Shown here: positions 15,951 to 17,659 of the stretch, one piece after another
Layout of the letters: each line of letters starts with the position of its first letter
How positions within the stretch are numbered: position 1 is the stretch's first letter
IMG/VR virus record: IMGVR_UViG_2923307698_000007
Coordinates: 1 to 51,851 of that record
Origin: a virus
Lineage: Duplodnaviria > Heunggongvirae > Uroviricota > Caudoviricetes
Length of the DNA: 51,851 nucleotides
Reading direction: 5' to 3' (one strand)
Program-made: the position numbers and the translations under genes
Notes under the pieces: model-generated
What the model saw: only the letters and a program-made list of their open reading frames with translations
What the model was told of the DNA's origin: nothing
Database searches by the model: none

Positions 15951-16277
15951 TCATAACACCGTCGGACAACGCAAATCGTAAATCAGCACGGAAACAGAAA
16001 ACGGCAGCTCCCCCTGAATCAGTTCTTCCCGCTCCGCAAGATCCGGATTCCGGTACAGCATCCCGGTCAGTCGCATGGCAGCCCCCTTCATCCGGGTTAA
16101 TGCCTCGCCCGGGATCAGTTCACCGTCCTCACGAATCACCTTATCCCGGCTGCCCTGAATGTAGGCCAGCAGCACGGCGGTAGCCTGACGAACCTTGTCC
16201 ATCAGCATGTCATCATCCGCGTCATGGTCGACACGCAGATGTGCCTTGATCTCTTCCAGTGTCAGTAATGCCGTCAT
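15951..16277 (-). CDS. Head-tail connector protein (gp6-like)
   Basis: 108 aa; start overlaps stop of upstream repeat protein; position after head genes. Confidence 0.6.
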   Translation of the reverse strand: MTALLTLEEIKAHLRVDHDADDDMLMDKVRQATAVLLAYIQGSRDKVIREDGELIPGEALTRMKGAAMRLTGMLYRNPDLAEREELIQGELPFSVSVLIYDLRCPTVL

Positions 16278-17659
16278 TTTCCGCCTCCTGCATCCCGTCC
16301 CCGTTTGGCAGCCAGGGTCCAGCCTGATGAATGAGCTTCTCCGGGTTTATCACCGGTCATACTGTTGCAGTGCCACAGCGAGCCCCCCCACGTCACCGTA
16401 TCACCGGGGTGGTAGGTTTCACCGGCTCTGAACACACCGCGGTAGAGCATCACCGGCAGGGAAAATGTTTTTTCCGTACGCTGGCCACTGCTCTGCCGGA
16501 CCACCACAGTGAACGACCGTTCGCCGGTCATGCTGACGTCAATATCGGCCACCCCGTCAACCAGGCATTCCCATCCCCGCATCCCGTGCGTTTTTTCATA
16601 CGCCCGCCAGAGTCCGCCCTGGTGTGTGGCATACGTGCCCCGGGGAAAGGATTTTTGATCGTCAATGGCGGGGATTATTTCCAGTGCCGTGGCATCACGC
16701 CCGTCCTGCGGAGCCGGCAGGGCTCTCACCGCATCCAGAACAGCCTTCTGCAGAACATCGGGATCATAGTCACGACCATCACGCGGAACAGGAATATGGC
16801 TTACCGCCTCTTTCACCATCTGTTCAAGCATCGGACGCACATCATCGGGGGTAATACTTTTACCGTCCGCCGGTACCGGAATATTCGCGACCGCATCATT
16901 CACCGCCTTCTGCAGTACTTCCGGATCGTAATCACGACCATCACGCGGAACAGGAATATGGCTTACCGCCTCTTTCACCATCTGCTCAAGCATCGGACGC
17001 ACATCATCGGGGGTAATACTTTTGCCGTCCGCCGGTACCGGAATATTCGCGACCGCATCATTCACCGCCTTCTGCAGTACTTCCGGATCGTAATCACGAC
17101 CATCACGCGGAACAGGAATATGGCTTACCGCCTCTTTCACCATCTGCTCAAGCATCGGACGCACATCATCGGGGGTAATACTTTTGCCGTCCGCCGGTAC
17201 CGGAATATTCGCAACCGCATCATTCACCGCCTGCTTCAGTACTTCCGGATCGTAATCACGACCATCACGCGGAACAGGAATATGGCTTACCGCCTCCTTC
17301 ACCATCTGTTCAAGCATCGGACGCACATCATCGGGGGTAATACTTTTGCCGTCCGCCGGTACCGGAATATTCGCAACCGCATCATTCACCGCCTGCTGCA
17401 GTACATCCGGATCATAATCACGACCATCACGCGGTACCGGAATGGCCCCCACAGCGTCATCCACCATCGCCTGCAGAACCGGACGCACCTCATCCACCGT
17501 CACATGCTTCTGTAATACCGCCGACAGGGAAGTCAGTTTCTCTTCAAACGCTTGTGCCTGCGAGGCCATCTTCCCCTCAAATGTGCGCTGTAAATCCGCC
17601 AGCACCGTGGAGAATTCTTCACCCAGCGCACGGATAATGGACAGTTCACGCTCTGTCAT
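16274..17659 (-). CDS. Tandem-repeat head-module protein of unknown function
   Basis: 461 aa; N-terminal coiled coil, five tandem 54-aa repeats (IPVPRDGRDYDP...IPVPADGKSITPDD), distinct C-terminal domain; translationally coupled to portal and connector genes. Confidence 0.6.
   Translation of the reverse strand: MTERELSIIRALGEEFSTVLADLQRTFEGKMASQAQAFEEKLTSLSAVLQKHVTVDEVRPVLQAMVDDAVGAIPVPRDGRDYDPDVLQQAVNDAVANIPVPADGKSITPDDVRPMLEQMVKEAVSHIPVPRDGRDYDPEVLKQAVNDAVANIPVPADGKSITPDDVRPMLEQMVKEAVSHIPVPRDGRDYDPEVLQKAVNDAVANIPVPADGKSITPDDVRPMLEQMVKEAVSHIPVPRDGRDYDPEVLQKAVNDAVANIPVPADGKSITPDDVRPMLEQMVKEAVSHIPVPRDGRDYDPDVLQKAVLDAVRALPAPQDGRDATALEIIPAIDDQKSFPRGTYATHQGGLWRAYEKTHGMRGWECLVDGVADIDVSMTGERSFTVVVRQSSGQRTEKTFSLPVMLYRGVFRAGETYHPGDTVTWGGSLWHCNSMTGDKPGEAHSSGWTLAAKRGRDAGGGK
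16690..17450. repeat. Tandem 162-bp repeats (about 4.5 copies, near identical) inside the repeat protein gene
   Basis: Direct DNA repeats visible, e.g. 16870-17030 and 17032-17192 nearly identical. Confidence 0.85.

Follow-up and report, generated by a model that had tools for sequence, protein, structure and literature searches.

What protein is encoded by a gene that lies between those for the portal and the head-tail connector and is built largely from near-identical tandem repeats, and where in the virion would that protein be found? We address this for ORF2, a gene of the window (the whole 51,851-nt stretch of DNA analyzed here, from a Caudoviricetes record of IMG/VR). Existing annotations call ORF2 'hypothetical' or, misleadingly, 'portal protein' or 'portal pseudogene'. 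No study of ORF2 was found in the literature on Stx-phage portals and frameshifting, BP-4795, portal C-terminal or collagen-like extensions, 9LBN and phage 2851, and no published function was found. We have identified ORF2 as a separate, portal-coupled protein with the anatomy of a fibre, whose relatives occur in stable split and portal-fused states. Because the fibre is made together with the portal and is fused to it in many E. coli prophages, the evidence suggests a portal appendage rather than a capsid decoration.

Anatomy and coupling of ORF2

Exactly one ORF fits the coordinates given to the gene in the first-pass annotation, which left its minus-strand orientation unsaid (Table 1). Its placement in the head module, with coupling to the portal on one side and to the connector on the other, is borne out by an ATGA stop/start overlap at each end, and an SD-like AGGGGGA lies inside the portal 3' end, 11 nt upstream of the ORF2 ATG. 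The PF04860 portal domain is absent from ORF2; that match belongs to the neighboring ORF at 17656-19020. The portal fold stops near aa 415, and the flexible linker and short conserved helix of aa 415-454 (nt 17659-17778) form the fusion point in the G6 alleles described below. The MCP gene, a protease-linker-capsid fusion with an S78 protease, is separated from ORF2 by two genes, and there is no separate scaffold gene.

Table 1. Positions of ORF2, its parts and its coupled neighbors in the window
Feature	Position	Strand	Details
Ad1 (gp6-like) head-tail connector gene	15951..16277	-	PF05135; coupled, downstream of ORF2
ORF2, repeat fibre protein	16274..17659	-	461 aa, ATG; 50 kDa, pI 4.9, net charge ~-23
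ATGA overlap, ORF2 stop/Ad1 start	16274..16277	-	
C-terminal all-beta knob	16304..16639	-	~aa 330/341-452; CBM5/12-type modules; most conserved part of ORF2
Repeat shaft	16640..17443	-	aa 73-340; 10 half-units of [IL]PxPxDG + 13-17-aa helix, alternately 25/29 aa; array 16743-17443
N-terminal segment	17444..17659	-	aa 1-72; long helix aa 3-50 + degenerate B-type helix (AF2)
ATGA overlap, portal stop (TGA)/ORF2 start (ATG)	17656..17659	-	
Portal gene, HK97 family	17656..19020	-	454 aa; PF04860, E 4e-81
G5 run within SD-like AGGGGGA, portal 3' end	17671..17675	-	G5 = split genes (here); G6 in relatives = in-frame fusion

Tandem Repeats Finder reported a period of 162 bp over 16743-17443 (4.3 copies, 96% matches, score 1276) with a half period of 81-87 bp inside the unit, and a separate repeat search returned 4 copies at 162-bp spacing. 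In the protein, ten [IL]PxPxDG motifs between aa 73 and 314 are spaced 25/29/25/29 aa apart, with half-unit A reading IPVPRDGRDYDPEVLQKAVNDAVAN and half-unit B reading IPVPADGKSITPDDVRPMLEQMVKEAVSH. The five repeats counted previously are thus roughly right: 4 A+B units are complete, and the array also has a fifth A and, at its end, a degenerate motif. Their near-identity is upheld, with the four full 162-bp DNA units being 95-99% identical in pairwise comparison. In the AF2 monomer model, the shaft is drawn as 13-17-aa helices with 12-aa loops between them at low confidence (pLDDT 45-70).

Copy number varies in relatives, as had been expected. Length classes of 245, 353, 405/407, 461, 515 and 569 aa occur among E. 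coli relatives, corresponding to ~1-7 units, and repeat number across the family runs from 0 to ~30 within one conserved head module. Median unit identity was 0.92 within a gene versus 0.91 between genes, a comparison only weakly informative about concerted evolution. The middle part is swappable across the family, being made of PxPxDG repeats, collagen G-X-Y or PEPLPDI repeats, and true G-X-Y collagen runs replace the repeats in members P0239 and P0256. Shaft length and type therefore change rapidly among relatives. The proposal of a ruler finds no support here, given this range of repeat numbers in the same conserved head module and a canonical tape-measure gene elsewhere in the window (10046-13288).

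The shaft is flanked by two dissimilar ends. The N-terminal segment is the most variable part of ORF2 among relatives. Of the coiled coil placed there by the first-pass annotation, the long helix at aa 3-50 is well predicted (pLDDT ~90, AF2) and the coiled-coil state is putative. The distinct C-terminal domain it had noted is an all-beta knob at ~aa 330-452, modelled confidently by AF2 (pLDDT 93-97) as a three-stranded beta fold that superposes on solved CBM5/12 domains. PF02839 (CBM5/12) scored 20.3 bits at aa 411-433, below the Pfam gathering cut-off of 26.2, and PDB sequence searches with ORF2 and with a knob profile gave nothing significant (best E for the profile, 0.025-0.1). The aromatic residues W363, Y416, W429 and W447 are near-invariant, and the knob may bind chitin or GlcNAc-containing glycans through exposed aromatics. 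In fold searches, the structural analogues of the knob were all extracellular carbohydrate-binding modules or external phage fibre or tailspike modules, and BFVD matches to 'collagen triple helix repeat' proteins of uncultured phages had the same layout of collagen plus CBM knob. Other Pfam matches to ORF2 (TetR_C_35, FliG_N, DUF4244 and others) were rejected because their scores sum over the repeats with no individually significant stretch, and matches to the 'portal' families phrog_2271 and phrog_1289 arise because fused portal+ORF2 proteins belong to them. Neither a match to a characterized head-protein family (Pfam, PHROGs, PDB) nor an invariant copy number was found.

Stable split and fused states of the portal

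A run of G residues, located 12-16 nt upstream of the ORF2 start codon, decides by its length whether two proteins or one 859-aa fusion is encoded. This dimorphism is new and was absent from the first-pass annotation. The window has G5 and is split, and the portal polypeptide is not continued past the crown here. Across 81 loci, ORF state was predicted perfectly by the length of the run (49 split, 32 fused). In finished genomes, one flank haplotype carried G5 at 708 places, G6 at 1,337, G4 at 3 and G7 at 0, and both run lengths were found on identical 300-nt flank haplotypes. The fused state has diversified and is carried by several haplotypes; at least 5 switches are needed across the 84 tips (parsimony minimum ~5). 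Run length was mixed in 2 of 46 haplotypes and the state was otherwise mostly clonal with haplotype. On the grounds of this mostly clonal distribution and the near-absence of G4 and G7, hypermutable phase variation was rejected.

Both states are under purifying selection (knob pN/pS: fused alleles 0.14, split alleles 0.22), and the fused alleles look functional from their sequences. Disrupted ORF2 is commoner in G6 (5/32 loci) than in G5 (1/49). All G6 alleles keep the SD and the ATG, so that free ORF2 could still be produced by internal initiation. Phages BP-4795 and Lys8385Vzw have split alleles, whereas phage 2851, a lysogenizing phage, has the fused one; G6 phages may be infectious. The split state is ancestral and the label 'portal pseudogene' is wrong.

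Portal fusions outside E. coli are rare. In a distant lineage represented by P0233 (1,237 aa), the portal is fused to the fibre on contigs from independent samples. This fusion is obligate, since there is no SD before the former start codon, and it arose independently of the E. coli G6 fusion. The portal of Moraxella phage Mcat9 ends straight in one knob module; a search for further portals of this type gave one fragment and no other phage, and as a singleton this architecture carries little weight.

The run could also be read as a programmed recoding or phase-variation site through which one phage makes both plain portal and portal-fibre fusion. ORF2 does occupy the -1 frame relative to the portal, a P-site GGG could re-pair in that frame on the G5 run with a rare AUA codon next, and identical 300-nt flanks carry either run length. 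Against this, the run is not conserved beyond E. coli and a few relatives, with AGAGGA or AAGGAG in its place in other genera, and the canonical X XXY YYZ slippery heptamer is absent. The 88 nt downstream fold no better than shuffled sequences (z = -0.70), so that no RNA structure is indicated there. The near-clonal inheritance of the state, with its few switches and few mixed haplotypes, and the scarcity of G4 and G7 fit a stable dimorphism and not rapid slippage. We consider recoding highly improbable, and programmed -1 frameshifting was rejected as the main explanation, the slippery site being unconserved and lacking a stimulatory structure downstream.

Recognition of ORF2 as a separate portal-coupled fibre with two stable states corrects the existing annotation. 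The dimorphism also accounts for a breakpoint and length polymorphism often seen when EHEC prophages are assembled, and the 162-bp copy number together with the G-run state could serve as prophage typing markers.

Conservation and the place of the fibre in the virion

The ORF2 family comprises 5,621 representatives at 50% identity. Related loci were searched with an 8-sequence alignment of the knob, as no block was conserved enough in a 101-sequence alignment. All 29 species-level loci, which come from Gamma- and Betaproteobacteria, retain the order portal-ORF2-Ad1 with overlapping stop/start codons, as does the collagen-type member. About one quarter of finished E. coli genomes carry an ORF2 gene, often in several copies, and in long-tailed Shiga-toxin phages the gene belongs to the head module. 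Mean distance was 0.36 for the knob, 0.36 for MCP, 0.40 for the portal and 0.49 for Ad1, and divergence of the knob correlated with that of the portal (r 0.89), MCP (0.85) and Ad1 (0.67). Between E. coli and Delftia, Variovorax or Pseudoduganella hosts, the knob is 52-58% identical. A host-specific receptor-binding tip is not expected from this pattern, because the knob is conserved like MCP and tracks portal and MCP better than Ad1. A mirror-tree analysis within E. coli gave no information on account of fine-scale mosaicism.

We tentatively favor, at slightly less than an even chance, the reading that ORF2 is a low-copy fibre tethered to the C-terminal crown of the portal and hence internal to the capsid. 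Over its whole length the portal can be aligned with solved portals of the HK97 family (9lbn, and 8cez up to residue 409 of 424), so the fusion point follows the C-terminal crown. In HK97-family portals the crown faces the capsid interior, and from this topology and the fusion point we infer an interior location. ORF2 would be synthesized in step with the portal through the embedded SD and the ATGA overlap, and its N-terminus would dock at the flexible C-terminal tail of the portal, which is predicted to leave the crown toward the interior. The segmented helical shaft, freely variable in length, would bear the conserved CBM5/12-type knob and probably trimerizes, as hinted at solely by the collagen-type relatives, so that one portal would carry at most 12 chains or 4 trimers. 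Such a fibre would most likely be attached to the portal vertex on its luminal side and act as an acidic, extensible tether that presents the knob to a conserved head component. One candidate partner is the protease-scaffold-capsid fusion while the procapsid nucleates at the portal; the portal or DNA, at a later stage, would be another. Tether length is uncritical in this model, and repeats are therefore free to expand, contract and be swapped.

Several observations count against the interior. The analogues of the knob are all extracellular or external-fibre modules, shafts of the collagen-like or segmented-helix kind are characteristic of external fibres, the net charge of -23 would be awkward beside packaged DNA, and no precedent for such a fibre within a capsid was found. 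The SD and ATG kept in G6 alleles, the more frequent disruption of ORF2 in G6 loci, the rarity of fusions beyond E. coli and the low AF2 confidence for the repeats also weigh against this reading. Its main rival is an external neck (collar) whisker like T4 fibritin, with ORF2 trimers outside the portal/adaptor junction and the knob binding a common surface glycan or assisting adsorption. The fibre architecture (long helix, segmented helices or collagen G-X-Y, terminal knob), the resemblance of the knob to CBM5/12 and tail-fibre tip modules, the fast variation in shaft length and type, and a gene directly upstream of the neck genes, as wac is in T4, all speak for the whisker. The retention of SD and ATG in every G6 allele would allow free fibre to be made by internal initiation, with the portal-fused copy tolerated or trimmed by the prohead protease. 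However, the P0233-lineage fusion is obligate and has no internal SD, the fused allele, which is under purifying selection, outnumbers the split one on one haplotype in finished genomes, and fusion to the portal C-terminus argues against external attachment at the neck. The conservation pattern is also the reverse of that in typical receptor-binding fibres, as conservation is highest in the distal knob and lowest in the presumed N-terminal anchor, and the knob identity noted above extends from E. coli to Delftia, Variovorax or Pseudoduganella. Overall, we regard the whisker, its account of G6 included, as rather unlikely although deserving of weight.

Of the scaffold suggested in the first-pass annotation, only a role in assembly at the portal is left. 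ORF2 would then be a transient, portal-bound factor that nucleates the shell and is degraded by the capsid-fused S78 protease, leaving mature virions without it; this reading falls under the interior model and differs from it in how the fibre ends up. An acidic, elongated, helical protein resembles scaffolding proteins in these respects, no separate scaffold gene accompanies the protease-linker-capsid MCP, ORF2 is coupled to the portal, and its knob co-varies with MCP and portal. A well-folded, highly conserved beta knob and collagen variants would nonetheless be unusual in a scaffold, and ORF2 has no similarity to known scaffolds, which together make this improbable. Binding to the capsid lattice as a decoration protein or head fibre, also among the original candidates, is more doubtful still and in our judgment very unlikely. 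ORF2 is a head-module gene and collagen-like trimeric decoration proteins such as SPP1 gp12 exist, but coupling is to the portal and not to MCP, whose gene is not adjacent, and no decoration family was matched in Pfam, PHROGs, PDB or fold searches. Covalent fusion to the portal C-terminus, seen in many relatives, is incompatible with a lattice-wide external position. The remaining candidate, a fibre, was right as a description of the architecture of long helix, repeat shaft and knob.

A more specific form of the capsid-internal crown fibre holds that four trimeric, acidic, length-variable fibres with CBM-type knobs are attached to the crown and that the split and fused states are two naturally coexisting virion designs, non-covalently docked versus portal-fused; this is a speculative proposal that we think somewhat unlikely. 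A bolder version still is that the split-form fibre would be ejected through the tail, where the knob would bind a peptidoglycan glycan. If the interior location is true, ORF2 represents a new type of portal-associated internal structure in siphophages and an unrecognized head-internal class in a large HK97-like siphophage group that includes the long-tailed Stx phages. For phage assembly, the question raised is what a conserved CBM-like knob would do when held at the portal crown by a tether.

Relation to known systems

The knob was compared with CBM5/12 modules of Serratia ChiB, Streptomyces ChiC and a Vibrio chitin deacetylase, and with CBM-like fibre tips of phages and contractile injection systems (Agrobacterium 7-7-1, Milano, Pa193 gp47 and Anabaena All3316). 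Unlike these, it falls below the Pfam threshold (20.3 vs 26.2 bits) and is encoded by a head gene linked to the portal, not as part of an enzyme or tail fibre, with binding putative. Some family members (P0239, P0256) share G-X-Y runs with collagen-like phage head and fibre proteins such as SPP1 gp12, whereas the window protein has PxPxDG+helix units and is coupled to the portal, not MCP. No fold or sequence similarity of ORF2 to lambda gpD, T4 Hoc/Soc, SPP1 gp12 or phage L Dec was found. Like SPP1 gp7 and Mu gpF, ORF2 is encoded directly downstream of the portal, is expected to be of low copy and portal-associated, and shows occasional portal fusions; its architecture is completely different, and Pfam and PHROGs gave no Phage_Mu_F domain or similarity. 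ORF2 would parallel T4 fibritin (wac) as a low-copy accessory fibre of short helices separated by loops, and its gene likewise lies beside neck/adaptor genes, wac lying immediately upstream of the T4 neck genes. Fibritin is external and not fused to the portal, and ends in a foldon instead of a CBM5/12-type knob; no fibritin homology in ORF2 was detected with Pfam, PHROGs, PDB sequences or fold searches. The P22-type portal barrel is similar in that ORF2 continues the portal C-terminus (covalently in G6 and P0233), has a long helix at its start and is predicted to extend out of the crown. ORF2 is normally a separate coupled protein in which no sequence relationship to the barrel was found, and in contrast to the one continuous coiled coil of the barrel, it consists of interrupted repeats of hypervariable length that end in a beta knob.

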